Source of the DNA: Schmidtea polychroa
Lineage: Eukaryota
Assembly (NCBI GenBank): GCA_044892525.1
Contig: CM097885.1
Span: 202,244,001-202,308,000, forward strand
DNA: 64,000 nt
Direction: 5' to 3'
In this document: positions 25,457 to 62,046 of the stretch, piece after piece
Numbering within the stretch: the first letter of the stretch is position 1
How the letters are laid out: every line of letters begins with the position of its first letter
Translations under genes and position numbers: made by a program
The notes under the pieces: model-generated
Told to the model about the DNA's origin: nothing
Database searches by the model: none
Seen by the model: only the letters and a program-made list of their open reading frames with translations

Positions 25457-26328
25457 CCTTATAGTGTACATTTTTGGTTATTTGTCGTTATAATTCACTG
25501 TTGTAAAACTCGATAGATTAAAGAAATAAATAATTAAAATGATATGTTCTACCGAATAAAACTTGAGAATAATTTTCTAATAACATAATGATCAGTAATT
25601 CAGATAGAAAATAGTCATTCCTAGTAAATAATTACTGCTTGAATCTGGACAGGTGTCGGTGATAATTCACAGTAATGCTATCACAATATCAAATTTATCG
25701 AAGTTAATTAAATAAAAATTTAATATCACATTTAAATAAACATTTTCATTTTTTTGATAACATCATACCGACTTGATATCAATATTTATGTTGTATTCAG
25801 TATTCACCCAAAAATATTTGTACTAGTAACTATATTAACAACTATGGCAGTTCTGAGGTTTTGATCAATGTACAGTTTCTTCAACACGTTCGAAGTCAAT
25901 GTTCTTATCGTTCGGATTTGCCTCCATCATTTTATTATAAACTAAGATTGATCGCTATAATTAATACGTGACAAATTCTACAAAACATCAATATTCGAAA
26001 AATAAATTTTAATAATAAATTGTAATATGTAGACGTCTTGACCCGTAAGGAAGCAATCTATTTTCATGAATAAAAAAATCGAATATTCAAAATTGTTTGA
26101 ATTACAAAATAGCGAAATAATAGTTGCGTAAAAAAAATTCGTATAACAGTTAAATATTAGTTGTGGAATTTTGCAATATACAAATTGTGGAACAAAGTGA
26201 GAAAATCTTATGTTAGGTGTGAGGTGTTTTTAGCTGATAAATAATTGATTATTTAACCCTCTCCGTGTAAAAAATAATGCTGATATTTATAGTGACCCGT
26301 TCTATTCCCACAAAAACGGTTACAAAAT

Positions 26329-27232
26329 GTGCCTTCAGCTTCATCCCGATGGATTCAAAGCTGGAAAAGGGATGTTGAAGCATTCATTAAAGGATGCGAT
26401 AAATATTTTAAAGTGGTACAAATGCATACTTCAAGACAAGAAGTGATGATCGAATTACTGATCGATAAAGAAATCAGAGATATATATACAGGAGTTGACC
26501 AAAATATCAAATGTTATAAGGAAAGATTGCGGAAGGCATTCGTCAAGAAAACAAGTTTGGCAGAGGATTTCCAATCTGCTATGTCTTATAGACAAACGAG
26601 TGAGGAGTCCGATAAATATTTTACTATCATAAACGAGTTAGTCGATAAAATATTTGGGCATGAGTACAAAAAGGAAAGTTTAACAGAATATCTGCTGGCA
26701 CATTGTGCAACCGAGAAGACTTTAAAAGGAGAATTGTGTCTAAGTGACACCAAAGGAACAACAGAAGTGAAGAAAAAAATCAAAAAGTTACGAATCTCGT
26801 ATAGTTGCAGAAGAGATCTATGCAGTGAGAGAAAGGCCACAACAGAATATAGCAAGAAGTTACAGAGACGCGGTAACAAATCAAGCGAGAAATATTGTAT
26901 CACCAAAATATAATAGCGAGCCGAGAGAGTATGGAGAAGAAAGACCGAACAGAACTAAGAACGAATGTTGGACATGTCACAAGGTAGGACATTTGAGTAG
27001 AAATTGCATAACAAAGAAGGCAGTTACATGTTTTACATATGGAAGACAAGGACATGTAAGAATTCAGTGTCCACAGATGCAGAGAAAGGTAGTCGAATGT
27101 TATGCGTGTGGTACCCCGGAACACGTGAGAAGAGATTGTCAAAAAATAAGGTGTACGAGGTGTAGATTGGGAGGTCATAAAGAAGCAGATTGTTACACAA
27201 ATTTGGAGAAAATGAGATTGGAGATTCAATGA
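26329..27232 (+). pseudogene. gag: Gag with four CCHC zinc knuckles (frameshifted)
   Basis: ORFs 26329-26913 and 26825-27232; knuckles CWTCHKVGHLSRNC, CFTYGRQGHVRIQC (degenerate), CYACGTPEHVRRDC, CTRCRLGGHKEADC. Confidence 0.82.
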
Positions 27233-27499
27233 GAATTTTTGAAGACAACAAGAACGATACGAAGCAGGGCATGGTTATCAAGGAACTAGAAAGGATACAA
27301 GTCAAGTAGACAAGAGATACGTAGCATTCATAGACGAACCAATTGATGAAAGAATAGAAGATAAATACAGAGAATACCCAAATATCAACGCCCTGATAGA
27401 AGAGGAGATAGTCGGGGCAGTGTATTAAACAGCGATGCTGACTCCCAAATTATTAATTATTATAATAAAAATAAAATATCATGTATTATAGAAAAAGAT

Positions 27500-28039
27500 G
27501 TGAAAGATACAGAGGTAACGGAAGAAGAAAATAATGTAATAAGGAAAGTAAACATATTCATAAAAAAGGATTTTGCAGAAGTAGAAAGAGACAAAATACA
27601 AATACTCACATTTGATGAATGGAAAAATGATATTATTAGTTATGATAAAATGCAAGGCCGGCCAAGTGTAACTATTAGAATACAAGACCAGAATATGGAA
27701 TGGTTGCTCGATACAGGAGCTACAGTAAATGTCATGAGTTGGAGTAAATTTGAGAAACTTAAAGATGTAGAACTAACAACAACGACTGATATATTGAGAT
27801 GTGCAAATAATAGTGTTTTAGAAACGAAAGGTAAAGCAATATTAGAAATAGGAATAAATGGCAGGAAAAGAAGTGTAAAGTTTACGATAGTAAGATATAT
27901 GACTCCAGAGGTAATTGGTTGTATAGAGTTGCAAAAATCAATTTGGTATGCAACTAAAGTTGCCAGTAGAAGAGGTCGAGAAAACGAATATTTTGATATT
28001 TACAGAAACGATCAATCATCACTAGGAAGTTTTAAATGA
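27500..28039 (+). pseudogene. retroviral-type aspartic protease
   Basis: WLLDTGATVNVM catalytic motif followed by the ANNSVLETKG flap-like segment. Confidence 0.85.
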
Positions 28040-52375: not shown

Positions 52376-52692
52376 TCTTCTTTGTCTCTCACTATGTCAA
52401 AACATAATGAAGTTAGGTGTGAATTTGTGAACAAAATTAGACAAGGTTTAAATAATAAAACATACTTACTCACTTTGTTGAATACACAAAGAAACAATAG
52501 TTTAATGTGAAATATTTAATTTAATTTAATGTATTTGTAATACATATTATATATAAATTTTAGCTCTCTGAACTCCTTCATATAAACTTTGACTATGCCA
52601 AATCTCACACTCTTACATGTGCGCAATATGCTTAAAAAGAGTAAAAAAATTCCCTTCAGGTATAAATGGTTACAAATGTTTAATTTCATTTT

Positions 52693-52982
52693 AGTAGTGG
52701 ATGTATGGCCTTCACGGACCCAACCCCCCCTAGCCCCCAGTGCCAAGCCCCTTCACATCCAGACTAAAAAACTAAACTTTTTCATCTTTTAACCCCCTAT
52801 ATTTACATCTTTTAGTCATAAAACCCTCAAATACACGGCTCCAATCCTCACAGACCCAAGTGATTGAAGTGGGAAACTTGAAAAGGGTCAGCGTCCGTGA
52901 AGGCCATACATCCACTACTATAAAAATATAAAAAATTTAAATCTTAAAAACTAGCAAACTGCGCAACTTGCTAATTTAATAG
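52693..52982 (+). repeat. left TIR (290 bp)
   Basis: Reverse complement of 57745-58035 apart from two substitutions and one homopolymer indel. Confidence 0.96.
52919..52982 (+). promoter_or_regulatory. putative TIR-borne promoter (TATAAAA plus palindrome centred on TGCGCA); mirror copy at 57745-57808
   Basis: Motifs lie just upstream of both start codons (52992 and 57715); function is inferred. Confidence 0.45.
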
Positions 52983-52991
52983 TATTTAAAA

Positions 52992-54283
52992 ATGGCTAAT
53001 AAAAATAAATTAAATCTTGATTACAATAAAGAGTTTATGCATGAAATTAAAAAAATTGATATTTTAAAAATATCACCAACTTCAGGATCTATTGCAAACT
53101 TAAATCGTAGGGGTGATATAGTTTTTCAATCTCTTCAAACATCAAACCCTATAGATATTTGTAATGCTAAATTATATTATAAAATTGAATTAGAAATTGA
53201 AGCAAACAAAGATATAACCCTAGAAAACAATTTCTTTCCAAATTTATTCTCCAACATGAGATTAAAACTAGGATCATCAGAAATTGAAACTGTTTTATAT
53301 CCAGGAATATATTCTACAATGTTAAATTTTATATTAACTGGTTGTGATTATAAAAATGAATATGGTGAATTAACAGGTTGGATTCCTGATGTTAATAAAG
53401 GGGATTTAGATAAAGATGGTTTAGATATAAATTATGGTTACCATAAAAGAGTTGAACTTTATAAATCTAAAAAATTTGAAGGTTATTTTGAATTAAAACA
53501 CTTATTTGGATTCCTTCAAAACTATAACCGTATACTTCATAATGTTTTTATAGAATTAACCTGTAATAGACTAGAAGGTGATAAAAAATTGTTCTATGGA
53601 GGTGTAGATACAAAAGCTAAATTAAAATTATCTACATATACCTGAATGGACTTTAAATCCTCAATATGAAATTAAACTCCTTGAAAGATTAAATTCCAAC
53701 AAATCTATAAATGTAAATTATTTAAATAGTCTGTAGTGAATTTAGTATGACAGAGGGTTCAACATATTCTATAAAGGTAGCAAATTTAGCATACCGACCG
53801 AGATATATCTTTATTGGATTCAAAGAAGTAGATTCATCTTTCCAAAAAAATAACTTGTTTATTCAAAAGATTGGAAATGATAATTTAAAATCAATACAAA
53901 TTCAATTAAATAGTTCTTATTATCCAATAAATAGAATGGAATTTAATATTGAAAATAATGAAAACATATTCCCATATCTGAATTATATTGAAACATGTTA
54001 TGATTTTAAAGTTGAACCACAATTAAGTTTAGAAGATTTCAAAAATTTATATTCTATATTTTGTATAAATGTATCAGATCAAGATGATCGTCTAGCTATA
54101 AATAATGTTGATGTTACACTTCATATAACAAAGGATTCTAATTTTAAAGCTAAAGTATATACATTAATATTAGAAGAAAATAAAATAGAATCTTTTGGAC
54201 TATTTGTCAACAACTCTACTCGAGTATATTTATCAACATTTTTCATTGTTTTCCCAAAGACTGAATTATTTAAAAGTTTATAA
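52992..54283 (+). pseudogene. Polinton-type double-jelly-roll major capsid protein (two frameshifts; C-terminus fused to antisense polB)
   Basis: Motifs LENNFFPNLFSNMRLKLGSSEIE, GWIPD, LKHLFGF..Y..IL.N, RPRYIFIGF, LNSSYYP, YTLILEE resemble Polinton capsids; bridging frame 53641-53736 PEWTLNPQYEIKLLERLN. Confidence 0.78.
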
Positions 54284-57200
54284 ATCATGTCTAGAAAAGC
54301 ATTTCCATTTCTTTTTGCTTCATTCCTAGATTTAATATTTCCCTCTATAAACTTTTTCATAAATGGTCTTTGGGAAAACTTTATTATAGAATGGATATTT
54401 TTTATTTTCATCCCATGAGAAAGATAAAACTTCAACAACCTATAGTGACAAAGATAATAAGTTTTATCAGTTTGATCACATAAAAGTTTTGTGGTTGTTG
54501 GTCTATCTTGTTGGGATGATAATTCATTGGAATCTACTTTCCTTTTTACTGGAGCAAAAGGAAAGTATCTAGTAACATATTTTATATCATTGGGGTATTC
54601 TAAATCACATTCTATTATATATCCCACTTCTGAATCTTTTTCTGTTGATAATATTTGATTCATAAGTTTTCTTAGGAGATCCTTTTCCTTGGGGATATCT
54701 ACCTGAATGAACTTATCAATTGGAAGGTATTGAGTCATTACTCCTGAATATAATGCTGTTGCATCTATATACATTATTTCTGATGGATTTGATAATCCTT
54801 CCTTTATTAATTTAGAATCCTGTTCTGTTTTTATTTGTATATAGTCTGCTTCAGGATCTTCACTAAAGAATTTCTTATAGAGAGATAGGAAGTTGTTTGC
54901 AGTGATTTCTCGGTCTCCCATCACGGAGCTAACACCCCCTCGAATATTTTCTTTAAGTACATTAAACATGTCGAGTTCAGTTAATAGTTCTATAGATGCT
55001 GTCTCGGAGCCAGAGGTCCACATAGTATATAATAATATATCCCAAGCTAGAGATGGGGATGTTATATAGTTGTAGGGTTTTAATTCAAATGCCTTGCAAA
55101 ATCCTTCAAAACAGTCTGCAAGGATATAAACATCGAGGGTTAAATACATGTCAGTATATTCCCCAATGTTTTTACATTTGAATAATTTGAACATTTTGTT
55201 GGCTCGGGTATATTCTTGATCACTTATACCCATTTGATTTAATTTTGAAAAGAATTCCTCTTGACCTGGTAATTCTGTTTCATTATAACGATCAAAAGAA
55301 TCTATATAATCATAAGGATAGATTCCTTTAGCCAGACATGTTTTATATTCCTCCTGGGGAATCTTATTTTTTACTAATACTTTTTCTATTGTATATGTAA
55401 AGTCTTCTGGTTTCATAGTTTTAGCTATTCCATCCAAAGACATTGATAGAAAGTTTAATGGATCTATAAACTTCAATCGTCCATATTGTACATATTTATA
55501 TTTCTCTTTTGTAAGTCCTATGACTTTAAAAGAGTTTTTAGCCTTTGCAGCTAAATGCTTTATGAATAAATGTATATCATATCCAAAAAGATTATGGAAT
55601 ATGACAGGGATAAAGTTTGGTTTCCTACAATTAATATTGCAGTTTTTATGGGCTGCACCCCTAAAGTTGTTTAGTTTTTTAAAATGGTCGTGATCTGGGA
55701 CTTTTATGTTTTCTTGTCTTTCTTGTCCTTCGTGAAATAGTCTTTGTTCTTCCTCTTCAAGACTTTCAGAATGACTTTCAGGATGGGGATCCTCAAATGG
55801 TTGTTTGCACATCCAACAAGTTGTTGCGTTTTCATATTCTTCCCATTGTTGTTCTGAAAAGTTTATTAGAAAGTTTGTTTTTAATATTTTAAAGAGTTTA
55901 TGTTCTAAATCGTTTATATCTTTAGTAAAATGATTTAGAGTTTCTTCTTCTGAGGATCCTCTATATGAATATTCTTTAGATTCTATAAGTTCGGGGTAAT
56001 TACTTTTAAAAAACAGTTTATAAGCTGATGCTACTTGTTTTGTTAGTTTTACTGTATAAGATTTATTATTTAAGTCTAGAAAGTTTTTCATACTTTCCCA
56101 TCCTGTTGATTTTCGTTGATTCCATGATTCTAATAGATTATTTTTTTCTATTATTTTTAAATATTCTTGCTCTAAATCTTGTTTTATAGTTATAGCTTCA
56201 AGGTCTCCATATATTACACCTAATGATTCTAGTAAGTTTGAAAAGTTTTTAAAGTGCATATTAGACTTTTCTTTGCTTGGCATTTTAATTAATGCTGGTA
56301 GGTTCTTACAACATAATCTTTCATGTTTAAATGCTGCAATGTCTGAGGCTGAATAATATAGACAACGTTCCACCGCTGTGGTGATTTTTTGATCGCATAA
56401 AACTTTGAAAGTTTTTTATTAGAATATAATGTTGTTTCATCTCAATGTCTTCTTGCTCTTCTTCAAGGTTTGACTCTTGAATATTTAAATATTGTTCTTC
56501 CTCATCTAGATCATCATATTCCTTATAAGTTTGTTCTCCTTTTTTATTTTCTTGTAATATTAAAAGATATATTTCTCTATTTTTATCTTGTTCTAATAAT
56601 TCCCTATTTGAAATGTGAATTGGGATGATGTGTTTCCTATCACCTACCTGACAAATATATTCATAAATTTTAAGTTTAATATTATTTAATTTTTCAAATT
56701 TTGGAATGTATTCAATCTTCATTGGGTGTTTAAATCCTTTTGGATATATTAATTCATTTTCATATTGCTTATATTTTGTAGGTCTTTCATTATGATTTCC
56801 TTGATGATGTAAATGTGCTAGTATTGACCATTGGAAACATTTATTATCCTTATTTCGAATATTTATAATGTGAATAGAAGTAAAGGGGGTAGGGATATAT
56901 GATTTAGGGTTTGGAAGTGCTCCTCTCCAATATTCAATTTCAAGTGATTGAAATGAATGAAATTTTAGGTTTGACTCTCCTAATTCTTGTTCAACCACTC
57001 TATGCTCTTCTCCAACTTTATGAATAATATTTTTAATTGTTTTTTTAAATCCCTTGGTTGAGAATAAATAATTATAAGGTGTTTCAATAATACGGTCTAG
57101 GACTGCTGTGTTTACATCTTCACCCCTCCAATATTTTGAGAGGATTCTAATTTTATATTTAATAACATTAAATCTTGATTTACCAAATTTTTTTATAGCA

Positions 57201-57715
57201 TCTTCCATTGATTTTTTTATTTTTTGTTTATTTCTTTTTATATACTCTAAAGATGAAGAGGATATAAATGGTTGTTCAAATTTATCTACATGGTTAAAGT
57301 TATCCCAATTATAATTTTCTTTTTCAAAAGGTTCTTCATCTTCTTCATCTTCTCTAATTTTTATATATTTTTCTTCTTCAAGGTCTTCAGGATCTCTTTT
57401 AACAATAGCACATTGTTTTAAATGTTTTAAATAATAAGATTCTGTGGTGAATTTTAATCTACATATAGGACATTCAAATTTTTTTCTATTTCTTTTAATC
57501 CCAATACAGTTTTTAAAATGGTTATCATATCCTAAAAGTAAATATTTTTCTTTACATTTAGGACAAAGTTTTGAGTTTGTATCATTTAGTCCAACTGTCT
57601 TTAATAAATGCTCTTTAGATTTTTGGTGTGATATTAGTGCTGTTCTATTTTTAAATTTTTTATTGCATATACTACAATTATAAATATTCAAAATTTTAAA
57701 GTTGTTAATATTCAT
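54121..57715 (-). pseudogene. polB: protein-primed family B DNA polymerase (one frameshift near 56375; truncated after motif B)
   Basis: N-terminal zinc fingers; ExoI YGDLE, endonuclease-VII-like CWMC...DHDH...HKNCN, ExoII FHNLFGYD, KGIYPYDY, ExoIII YLTLDV, PolA DATALY, PolB KLLNNSVFGK; no YxDTDS motif C. Confidence 0.92.
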
Positions 57716-57744
57716 TTTTTTAAAAATTTTTTTTATTGGGTATG

Positions 57745-58035
57745 CTATTAAATTAGCAAGTTGCGCAGTTTGCTAATTTTTAAGATTTAAATTTTTTATA
57801 TTTTTATAGTAGTGGATGTATGGCCTTCACGGACGCTGACCCTTTTCAAGTTTCCCACTTCAATCACTTGGGTCTGTGAGGATTGGAGCCGTGTATTTGA
57901 GGGTTTTATGACTAAAAGATGTAAATATAGGGGGTTAAAAGATGAAAAAGTTTAGTTTTTTAGTCTGGACGTGAAGGGGCTTGGCACTGGGGGCTAGGGG
58001 GGGGTTGGGTCCGTGAAGGCCATACATCCACTACT
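57745..58035 (-). repeat. right TIR (291 bp)
   Basis: See left TIR. Confidence 0.96.
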
Positions 58036-58077
58036 CATTTTGTTTCATTAGTTTAAAATAAATAATTCATATTACCA

Positions 58078-59564: not shown

Positions 59565-61142
59565 TCAACCAATGAGAATATTGAAATTTTCTACTAAAAT
59601 TACAAGTTCGGAAATTCGAATTCCTATTTTCTTAGATTCGTTGCAAATCTCTATTATTTTATCCAAATTGGTAACAATATTGGATTTTGAGTTTAACCAG
59701 AATTTTTTATTAAAAAATATTTTACCTGATTTATAAAATATTGTTTCAAGTACAATTTTTAATAGATTTTCTAATAATTGAAGTGAAGAGTGAGTGTTTA
59801 ATAAATTACTGTAAGCTTCATTTGACTCAATCTTATGCAAATATTCTTTCCTTCTCATTAATACAAAATCATTGATAAAAGATTCTTGGCACATAGTTAA
59901 CCATTGGAGTTTTAATTTATGAATAGAATCAAACAAATCGTTCTTGTAAAATTGTAACTCTAATTGGTTTTTACACAATCTTTCTATGAGTTTTACTGCA
60001 CTCATTAACATTTCTAATGTGCTAAAAATAAGAGAAAGGTTTTTCTCTGTTATTGAAGTCACTATACTTGGTCCTAATTCCGAAATATTTTTCAAATATA
60101 AACTTAATTCTTCAATCTTTTGCCCGTAATTTGTGGATATTAATTCATTATTGTCAATGCACGTCATATAGCATTTATTGGTGACAAATTGAAATGTCAA
60201 AACACAATTACAGCAGAGACCCTTTTCACAATTTTGGCATTGATATCCACCGATTATTATGAGTGATGAGGAACATAGTAGACATTTAAAATCTGTGACG
60301 TTGAATAACTCGCAAGTTACGTCCGTTGGCAAATGGTTTGTTAAATGTAACAACACTGCCTTACTCAATAAAATCTGCTTTTCTCTAAAAATATTATTCT
60401 TTTTTAAATGAATTATTGTATATTTTAAAGATTCTAATATAATTTCTTCTGTTTGTTTAGGATCCTTTTGCAAAAAAATAATTATCCAATTAAAACATTC
60501 ATAATGCATTAAATTTGAGAGTTCTAAACATTGTAGGCATCTTTTAAACATGCCTACTTTTTCTAAATGATCACCAACAACTTCGTACTTTTCACCATCA
60601 AAAAAGAATTTATTTTTTGTTAATTTATCTTCAATTATGCTCAATTTATTAAAATTCTCCTGTGAGTTAAATTCTAAAGTTTCTAAATGACATTTGAATA
60701 AAAGAGAGCTTAAAATTCCAAATCTTTGTATGAGTATTTTGGATTTTGAGTTGAACTCTTTCCTATCGGCACAATGAAATTTATTTATCAAATTTTCATA
60801 CATCGATTTACACTTTAAACTGTAATATTTTTCGAAATATTGGAAAAAAGAATTTTTACGAATAAATTCTCTAGAAATATTCAAAATCATATTATTAAAG
60901 TTCTGTAATAATTCTTTCTGTAATTTTCTTCGTATAGGTTTTAAATTCTTTTTCCTACTTGTTGAATCATAAAACGTCAATGATGAAATTTGTGATCTAT
61001 CGAATGGGCAATTAATATTTCTAGACAACCAAGATTTTGTACATTCAACACATAAAGAATGACCACAGTTTTCATATCTTACCATGCAGTCATGAGACAC
61101 TAATAAAGTACATACTAAGCATTCAATATCTTCATAATTCAT
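59565..61142 (-). CDS. intronless 525-aa protein with an N-terminal RING-HC finger and a second degenerate RING; putative E3 ubiquitin ligase
   Basis: Intact ORF; CLVC-x14-CGH-x2-CVEC-x10-CPFD; second unit CLLC-x14-CEKGLCCNC-x10-C. Confidence 0.85.
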   Translation of the reverse strand: MNYEDIECLVCTLLVSHDCMVRYENCGHSLCVECTKSWLSRNINCPFDRSQISSLTFYDSTSRKKNLKPIRRKLQKELLQNFNNMILNISREFIRKNSFFQYFEKYYSLKCKSMYENLINKFHCADRKEFNSKSKILIQRFGILSSLLFKCHLETLEFNSQENFNKLSIIEDKLTKNKFFFDGEKYEVVGDHLEKVGMFKRCLQCLELSNLMHYECFNWIIIFLQKDPKQTEEIILESLKYTIIHLKKNNIFREKQILLSKAVLLHLTNHLPTDVTCELFNVTDFKCLLCSSSLIIIGGYQCQNCEKGLCCNCVLTFQFVTNKCYMTCIDNNELISTNYGQKIEELSLYLKNISELGPSIVTSITEKNLSLIFSTLEMLMSAVKLIERLCKNQLELQFYKNDLFDSIHKLKLQWLTMCQESFINDFVLMRRKEYLHKIESNEAYSNLLNTHSSLQLLENLLKIVLETIFYKSGKIFFNKKFWLNSKSNIVTNLDKIIEICNESKKIGIRISELVILVENFNILIG

Positions 61143-62046
61143 TTTATAACTTCTATTACCGTTGACAAATTTTATTAAATTCCAAATATCATTTTTTTCA
61201 CATTTATTGAATGATGATTGGTTAAAATTAATTCATTTAGATTCTTTAAAATTTTAATATTTAGTAAATTAAAATTTCAAGCAATTGTTTTTAATTTGAA
61301 AATTAAAAATTTTCATTTAATTCATAAAAATTTTTGAAGTTTTAAATTAATATAAAAATACATTTTTAGTTAATTAAATAGAATATTATTATAATTTTTT
61401 AAACGATAAATATCAATATTATAGTTTATAGCAAAAAATTCACTTCATATTCGACATAGAAAGTTTAAAATTTTTCAATAACTTTTGATTCTAATCGACA
61501 TTAGATTTTCATTGAATGTTATCTGAAAATCGACTTATTTATTGAATGATGCATAATTCATCCAATTTATATTTTAAAACTGTTTCACTTTGTCAAATAT
61601 TAAGTTATTTAATTAAAATCTACTTATTTCTTTTAATTTTTGCTTAATAATGTTTAATTTAAAATCTACATCATAATATTTTTGTTTCAACCTTATTTGA
61701 AAATCGACTTTTCCTTAGAATATATAATTTATTTAATTTAACCATGACTTTTTTTAAATTACATTGTTAAATTTTGTTAAAAACGTTTAAAATAAATTTA
61801 ACTTATTATTATATCAGTATGATTGTATCAAATTACGTATTTAATATTAACAGGTGATATTTTAAATTATACATTTACTCATTGTAGAACGATCTTATTA
61901 TTATTATTTTTCAGCACCACAAATTATCGCACTCCCCATTCAATTAGTTTTATTTAACAAGATAAAAGCAATTATAAATTTTAAAATATTTTAATTATTA
62001 AAAAATAACATAATTTTAAACGTTAATAAATAAAAACCAAATAGTA

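Follow-up and report, generated by a model that had tools for sequence, protein, structure and literature searches.

The window, a stretch of 64,000 nucleotides of Schmidtea polychroa DNA, contains a Polinton-like element of 5343 bp (52693-58035) that begins with AGTAGT and ends with ACTACT (Table 1). It is flanked by an exact 6-bp target-site duplication (TSD), CATTTT; the probability of an exact 6-mer match by chance is ~0.001 at 25% GC. The left and right terminal inverted repeats (TIRs) align with 290 matches, 3 mismatches, and 1 gap. Two convergent genes lie between them, one encoding a major capsid protein and the other a protein-primed DNA polymerase B (pPolB). The capsid gene starts 7 nt from the left TIR (ATG 52992) and the pPolB gene 27 nt from the right TIR (ATG 57715, minus strand). 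These features bear out a preliminary description of the locus, which had reported the termini and the TSD, TIRs of ~290 bp that were ~99% identical, and two convergent genes no more than 30 nt from the TIRs. It had also reported no integrase, ATPase, or protease in the element. We searched the whole window by tblastn with 12 proteins of long relatives, and capsid and pPolB were the sole matches. No rve integrase, packaging ATPase, or cysteine protease was found in the window element, and all three are present in its parent family.

Table 1 Features of the element in the window.
Feature	Position	Strand	Basis or remark
Left TSD, CATTTT	52687..52692	.	sequence
Left TIR, 293 bp, AGTAGT at start	52693..52985	+	repeat search and alignment
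Inner inverted copy of left TIR terminal 27 bp	52893..52919	-	pairs with 52693-52719: 27-bp stem, 173-nt loop
Major capsid protein gene, double jelly roll	52992..54190	+	Pfam PF21738, tblastn
Deletion junction, 2-nt overlap of the two sides	54189..54190	.	comparison with relatives
pPolB gene, N-terminal C2H2 zinc fingers	54189..57715	-	PF03175, tblastn
Right TIR, 294 bp, ACTACT at end	57742..58035	-	repeat search and alignment
Inner inverted copy of right TIR terminal 27 bp	57808..57834	+	pairs with 58009-58035
Right TSD, CATTTT	58036..58041	.	sequence

Two broken genes and a deletion junction found once

Polintons/Mavericks are recognized by an (AGT)2 or (AG)3 motif at the TIR end, a 6-bp TSD, a double-jelly-roll capsid, and a polymerase matching PF03175. 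The window element has the motif and the TSD. Its capsid gene matches PF21738 on two pieces (E 1e-07 and 9e-11), though the gene is broken, and its pPolB matches PF03175 (E 2e-14), with the polymerase truncated and frameshifted. Both genes end at one common junction, where 8,881 bp are missing relative to a 14.3-kb relative. The capsid gene has lost its last ~20 codons there, and pPolB its last ~340 codons, including polymerase motif C. The capsid gene also carries frameshifts near 53633 and 53730 and a small in-frame loss near 53852; pPolB carries a frameshift near 56370 and a small in-frame loss near 56452. The window copy cannot produce either capsid or polymerase. The shared cut and the frameshifts were additional to the preliminary description, as was the inner inverted copy in each TIR.

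With at most 2 mismatches allowed, the deletion junction has 1 match in the 781-Mb assembly, and the small-lesion junctions near 53633 and 56370 have 1 match each. The lesion near 53633 was absent in all 16 compared copies, and that near 56370 in the 14 of these that cover the site. The assembly holds no further copies derived from the window copy. Among its private substitutions, 13 change an amino acid and 3 are silent, where neutrality expects 12.9 of the 16 to be changing; the corresponding ratio for variants shared among copies is 246:388 (Fisher p 0.001). The private substitutions thus look neutral.

Among the matches listed for four sequencing runs (all contigs), there was no contig spanning the junction, and no RNA dataset with the element was among the matches listed. 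Runs X1 and X2, both from one study that may itself be the source of the assembly, cover the boundary between host and TIR with no difference, and their depth there is close to that of the flank. In runs X5 and X6, cover of the window TIR type was low, which was not counted as absence. Summed depth, which does not give a copy number, was 10-100x higher on the capsid gene than on pPolB, and this fits with capsid genes being common to sister subfamilies. No match to pPolB was found among PDB sequences, and no relatives of the element were found in viral contigs.

The parent family and the origin of the window copy

Relatives of ~14 kb in the same genome share the end genes and termini of the window copy and have exact 6-bp TSDs; the TSD was exact in 13 of the 18 loci checked, window copy included. 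Between capsid and pPolB, the long relatives carry a PLA2-integrase gene (PF08398 and PF00665), an A32 ATPase (PF04665), and an adenain-like protease, the last called from Atlas clusters (PF00770 on 12-62% of members, score 0.95-0.96). The capsid comes first, followed by the integrase, the ATPase on the opposite strand, and pPolB last and convergent. An ORF of 238-257 aa after the protease matches unnamed viral clusters alone (0.98) and is a candidate penton; its single-sequence structure model was unusable (pLDDT 34). A weak match to protein X (PF05829, E 0.005) was also found in the family. The search for full-length relatives that the preliminary description had suggested recovered the integrase, the A32 ATPase, and the adenain-like protease, and the ORF as a candidate minor capsid. 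Since capsid and polymerase occupy the two ends throughout the ~14-kb family and its sister subfamilies, this layout is not a product of miniaturization.

In a pPolB tree, the window copy falls within a clade of four copies (100/98), and two of its three sisters retain the middle genes. Large deletions (at least 300 bp) were found in 10 of 20 compared copies, which were chosen non-randomly from top matches and paired termini, and the breakpoints were all different. Microhomology at the deletions of other copies amounted to one 2-nt overlap, the remainder being blurred by divergence or inserted sequence. A sister copy at C1:245222936-245234626 also lacks most middle genes. Descent of the window copy from this sister was considered and rejected, as the two have no breakpoints or lesions in common.

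The window element is a deletion derivative of a Polinton/Maverick member family and not an intact member. Although the order of insertion and deletion cannot be read from one haploid assembly, the element is a copy of the ~14-kb family that lost its middle 8.9 kb at a single junction, likely through ordinary host-side deletion following insertion. A complete ~14-kb molecule would have been inserted by the family's own rve integrase, giving the 6-bp TSD. Afterwards it would have accumulated ~0.4% point changes and five small deletions; a single large deletion, end-joined with a 2-nt overlap, would have removed the middle genes. The private lesions and junction, the neutral substitutions, and the frequency of separate deletions in the compared copies all argue for decay after insertion. 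In vertebrates, 96% of Maverick loci are degraded, according to excerpts of PMC8097293. A copy deleted after insertion was one of two options in the preliminary description, and it is supported by the ~14-kb relatives holding the middle genes and by the single-copy junction.

It is unlikely that the deletion instead arose during extrachromosomal copying, with a single defective molecule being integrated by a helper integrase, decaying later, and never being recopied. Such an origin would fit the intact ends and TSD of the window copy. It would also fit the mobile elements of this genome that have few genes, Polinton-type ends, and 6-bp TSDs, and the polB-lacking polintons that, in excerpts of the Pannagram preprint (10.1101/2025.02.07.637071), are apparently still mobile. 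Another relative, at C1:151127902-151138054, lacks 4.6 kb, is flanked by an exact TSD, and bears TIRs of two different subfamilies (69% alike). Recombination before integration would account for such ends more easily, which suggests that deleted molecules may sometimes integrate in trans. However, the window copy does not require this explanation: its five other private deletions and its neutral changes post-date insertion, and large deletions with differing breakpoints are common in relatives.

An assembly error collapsing a full-length copy at the junction is very improbable. The family is high-copy and the matches listed held no contig across the junction, but both ends belong to one subfamily with an exact TSD, runs X1 and X2 cover the host-TIR boundary, and private lesions lie on either side of the junction. 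Still less credible is the other option of the preliminary description, a multi-copy non-autonomous family of two-gene mini-Polintons mobilized in trans, which that description had said would fail with a single-copy junction: the intact ends and the gene loss in the sister at C1:245222936-245234626 point towards it, but a non-autonomous family is defined by several insertions with one common deletion junction, the junction and small lesions here are single-copy in the assembly, the sister has different breakpoints and none of the 5 small lesions, and both remaining genes are non-functional and appear to evolve neutrally.

Of the earlier interpretation, the deleted copy was retained and the novel mini-family was not. 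The window element does not represent a new family of mini-elements; it is one broken copy from a common family of this genome. As a dead element it carries no weight as a two-gene mini-virus, and it cautions that intact TIRs and an exact TSD do not demonstrate mobilization in trans. The pPolB-only palindromic family of this genome is a better mini-Polinton candidate than the window copy.

A fold-back repeat inside the TIRs

The stem formed within the left TIR had a z of -7.6 against 200 shuffles. In 49 of 52 TIRs, the terminal 27 bp recur in inverted orientation ~200 bp inside. The terminal 27-mer had 232 matches. Across the lineage, the terminal 26-35 bp are repeated inverted ~200 bp inside, and the fold-back is kept across terminal types differing at 12-15 of 27 bases, with outer and inner copies changing together. 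The loop separating the 27-bp repeats showed no flip-flop, its orientation being the same in 62 of 62 TIRs. Solo 220-bp fold-back units were also considered as tiny mobile elements and rejected: none of 20 suspected loci held a fold-back unit bounded on either side by a 6-bp duplication, and most of these loci run into element sequence on one side.

We tentatively suggest, from the repeat pattern, that the fold-back may have a role in replication or end repair. With a fold-back at each terminus, a single strand freed when the element is copied by protein priming could locally restore a duplex origin or mend its end, with no need to pair ends 14 kb apart. If so, a molecule would need no more than its ends to be copied and integrated in trans, and the window element and other deleted copies could be defective genomes from that cycle. 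To our knowledge, the start and finish of Polinton replication have been modelled but never shown; the fold-back, if functional, would be a short, conserved, and testable cis element for this process. Kapitonov and Jurka reportedly named non-autonomous Polintons in 2006. A search by title and start of abstract, with Kapitonov and Jurka 2006, Pritham 2007, and Repbase outside its scope, listed no paper on fold-back, palindromic, or non-autonomous Polintons.

Comparison with known systems

The window element resembles Polintons/Mavericks (class Polintoviricetes), as described in PMC8097293 and PMC4028283, in its (AGT)2...(ACT)2 motif, 6-bp TSD, and TIR length, and differs from them in the absence of the middle genes. 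The parent family shares with them pPolB, rve integrase, packaging ATPase, protease, and double-jelly-roll capsid, and most copies are degraded in both. Its size is consistent with that of intact vertebrate Mavericks (12.7-24.6 kb). The gene order differs, since in vertebrate Mavericks pPolB, ATPase, and PZ lie in one module of two (PMC8097293, section 7).

Adintoviruses, in excerpts of PMC8502044, are likewise animal-associated and encode PolB, rve integrase, FtsK-type ATPase, adenain, and a PLA2-like domain; the weak protein-X match of the parent family is a further resemblance. The PLA2-like domain lies in their PLA2X gene, whereas in the parent family it lies within the integrase reading frame. 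The parent-family pPolB scores weakly against pfam03175 (44-54 bits), and endonuclease VII (PF02945) is carried by many of the relatives listed for it, at 30-36% identity. This suggests that it may fall in the divergent adintovirus Beta class, which is defined by <30% identity to the pfam03175 type and grouping with Beta references.

Endogenous virophages and PLVs of Halocafeteria, in excerpts of 10.64898/2026.07.28.741278, have self-complementary TIR ends like those of the parent family, proposed to aid replication. Their palindromes are tight (52 nt; search gap limit 10) and mostly occur with non-pPolB replicases, whereas here a 26-35-bp stem encloses a loop of ~170 nt in a pPolB element. 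Finally, the polB-lacking butterfly polintons (10.1101/2025.02.07.637071, in excerpts) are flanked by TIRs and miss a core gene, like the window copy. They comprise several related insertions, whereas the window copy is single-copy.

The element and its parent family

The ends, TIRs and TSD of the element at window 52693-58035 were found to be as the preliminary description had them, with capsid and the protein-primed DNA polymerase B (pPolB) as the sole family genes in the window. The TIRs, of 293 and 294 bp, align with 290 matches, three mismatches and one gap. A tblastn search of the window with 12 proteins of long relatives detected no family protein other than these two, and this copy lacks the integrase, ATPase and protease that form part of the Polinton definition.

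We used the left end of the copy as a query against the genome assembly of the same animal (G000, with contigs C1 to C3) and obtained 418 candidates, the best 40 of which were scored as relatives. At two mismatches or fewer, this genome has 232 matches to the terminal 27-mer, at most four of them per element. An exact 6-bp TSD was found in 13 of 18 loci checked, the window included; it was absent in two, and a single end was located in three. The long relatives that had been proposed as a search target, with integrase, A32 ATPase and adenain-like protease, were found in this genome. One of 14,306 bp has an exact TSD and itself carries stops and frameshifts. The parent family is a Polinton family by the definition, as set out also in PMC10748475, PMC11161782, PMC4028283 and PMC11296320. 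Because the 14,306-bp relative has the same arrangement, a capsid gene at one end and a polymerase gene at the other represent the usual layout of the family; they are likewise terminal in sister subfamilies with other termini.

For the sister subfamilies (C1:210.2 Mb, C1:177.6 Mb and others; loci L057-L074 and L093-L104 of G000), protein identity is about 85-95% in capsid, integrase and ATPase and about 65-70% only in pPolB, and their termini are unrelated past AGTAGT. It seems that the ends diverge along with the polymerase and that the capsid-integrase module remains similar.

Features of the window and of related loci in G000
Feature	Position	Strand	Details
Polinton copy	window 52693-58035		5343 bp; starts AGTAGT, ends ACTACT
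TSD of this copy	both flanks		CATTTT
Capsid gene	window, start 52992	+	7 nt from TIR
pPolB gene	window, start 57715	-	27 nt from TIR
Fold-back, left and right TIR	window 52693-52919; 57808-58035		first 27 bp recur inverted; inner copy ends 227-228 bp into the TIR
LTR retrotransposon	window 26296-28039	+	gag and protease broken (PF00098, PF00077)
555-aa open frame	window 59565-61232	-	N-terminal RING finger (PF13639, E 3e-05); 1.5 kb right of element
Long relative, left half	C3:137079810-137094115		TIR, capsid, PLA2-integrase, A32 ATPase (opposite strand), weak protein-X match, unknown ORF
Long relative, right half	C3:137079810-137094115		adenain-like protease, candidate penton, three ORFs, pPolB (opposite strand), TIR
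Integrase frame of family	L009:3991-5535	-	N-terminal zinc-finger-like segment and parvovirus-type PLA2 domain (PF08398) preceding rve core
Closest copy by TIR	C1:245222936-245234626 (L001, L002)		7.8 kb lost at other breakpoints; 3.6 kb reverse-transcriptase-bearing sequence (PF00078) at deletion site
Copy with ends of two subfamilies	C1:151127902-151138054 (L037, L038)		exact TSD TATGTA; TIRs with only 69% likeness to each other, each close to a different subfamily (93-98%)
Palindrome nested in Polinton	C3:80929098-80941915 (L064, L063)		12.8 kb; divergent pPolB per arm; exact 6-bp TSD
Inverted repeat pair	L069-L070:8894-19177 (C2:138.54 Mb)		4.8 kb, 99.7%, without long ORFs; adjoins truncated Polinton

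The deletion, its origin and the decay of the copy

Compared with the 14,306-bp relative, the window copy lacks 8,881 bp. At the junction (54189/54190) the two sides overlap by 2 nt when set against the two closest copies covering both sides. The capsid gene has lost its final ~20 codons there and pPolB its final ~340, including the DTDS motif, which is located just past the break in a relative. Among the best 40 scored places, a 601-base query around the junction matched end to end in the window alone, and a 28-nt pattern over it had one match in the whole assembly at two mismatches or fewer. The copy belongs to the family, its deletion is single-copy and its genes are dead, which bears out the deleted-copy option of the preliminary description.

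The copy also carries five small deletions, three frameshifting (near 53633, 53730 and 56370) and two not (near 53852 and 56452). The first was absent from 16/16 compared copies, and the second and third from all 15 and all 14 copies covering the site, respectively; patterns across two of the five each had one match in the assembly. Over 1,496 codons we counted 16 private substitutions (0.36%), 13 amino-acid-changing and three silent, where neutrality predicts 12.9 of 16 amino-acid-changing. Variants common to at least two copies comprised 246 amino-acid-changing to 388 silent (pN/pS 0.12-0.47 by segment; private versus shared, Fisher p 0.001). The private changes, small in number, fit neutral evolution after insertion in a lineage under selection while active.

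In the pPolB tree the copy falls within a four-row clade (support 100/98); the capsid tree omits one row because of a duplication. All three sisters carry deletions of their own; in two of them the middle genes remain. Ten of 20 compared copies, the window included, lack at least 300 bp, all at different places; the 20 were picked from top matches and paired ends and do not give a genome-wide rate.

Polintons are described, in PMC8097293 and PMC6431247, as integrating by an rve integrase with 6-bp TSDs and as mostly degraded. In the window, a full-length molecule would have inserted and a large deletion would have followed later by end joining, which is the probable course of events. It is rather unlikely, though worth weighing, that the deletion arose while the element was copied outside the chromosome and that a helper integrated this defective molecule once. 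The copy at C1:151127902-151138054 speaks for this: it is a recombinant that may predate its integration, with ends of two different subfamilies, a deletion of 4.6 kb and an exact TSD. So do polB-lacking polintons that are apparently mobile according to a preprint (10.1101/2025.02.07.637071). An assembly error at the junction is very improbable: no junction-spanning contig was among the pieces listed, but contigs of the sequencing runs X1 and X2 (one study, which may be the assembly source) show an exact match across the boundary between host and left TIR, at a depth close to that of the flank. The multi-copy, trans-mobilised mini-Polinton family of the preliminary description fails on the single match of its junction in the assembly and is the least credible account. 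The window copy is a real element, a single decayed, internally deleted Polinton, and the ordinary explanation holds.

Palindromic pPolB elements

High-copy palindromes of ~13 kb with ends AGTAGG(T/G)AGT have 651 terminus matches in the genome. We examined ten copies, C3:80929098-80941915 and nine more (L077-L092), and found an exact 6-bp TSD in 10/10 and, in eight, arms of 6.2-6.9 kb at >99% identity. Each arm carries a divergent pPolB with 27% identity to that of the window family. No ORF of at least 150 aa was found beyond pPolB and frames overlapping it, and no capsid, integrase or ATPase match in any of the ten. This element is a candidate for a helper-dependent, trans-mobilised mini-Polinton, which it would fit far better than the window copy does.

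Fold-back ends and comparison with known systems

Each window TIR contains an inverted copy of its own first 27 bp, and the left TIR as single-stranded DNA has a fold z of -7.6 versus shuffles. Both copies were present in 49/52 TIRs of G000, where likeness to the window's was 96% (median) for stems and 82% for loops. The same variant occurs in both the outer and the inner copy 28 times, over eight columns, versus 3.9 when inner copies are permuted between TIRs; this control takes no account of relatedness. Of 14 further loci, 11 showed the same fold-back, with 26-35-bp stems. Among them are four terminal types in which 12-15 of the 27 bases are not those of the window; in the three loci lacking it the end may fall outside the stretch examined. 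This recurrence across differing terminal types is stronger evidence than the shared variants. The 58.5 kb of flanking window sequence held no such build. Loop flip-flop was rejected (one orientation in 62/62 TIRs), and none of 20 loci checked for a stand-alone fold-back unit had one flanked by a TSD.

The fold-back could serve protein-primed copying as a local origin in duplex form or as a template for repair of the end; an additional site bound by integrase or by an origin-binding protein would fit as well. In the titles and abstract openings listed by the literature searches, a set without the original Polinton papers and Repbase, we found no description of it in Polinton TIRs. Of this finding, the fold-back ends are what deserves to be kept.

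In the protein database, the capsid is closest to unnamed proteins, at 93%, 72-73% and then about 50%. For pPolB the matches are likewise unnamed at 41-51%, followed by others at 30-38%; many of the relatives have endonuclease VII, and a few carry names, from insects. These matches make pPolB a candidate member of the divergent (Beta-like) PolB class described in PMC8502044. No relatives of the family were found in viral contigs. The gene order of vertebrate Mavericks is unlike that of the parent family, which is known from this genome. Within the literature searched, the report nearest to the Polinton fold-back (10.64898/2026.07.28.741278) is of tight palindromes that lie at the ends of the TIRs in virophages and PLVs of protists.
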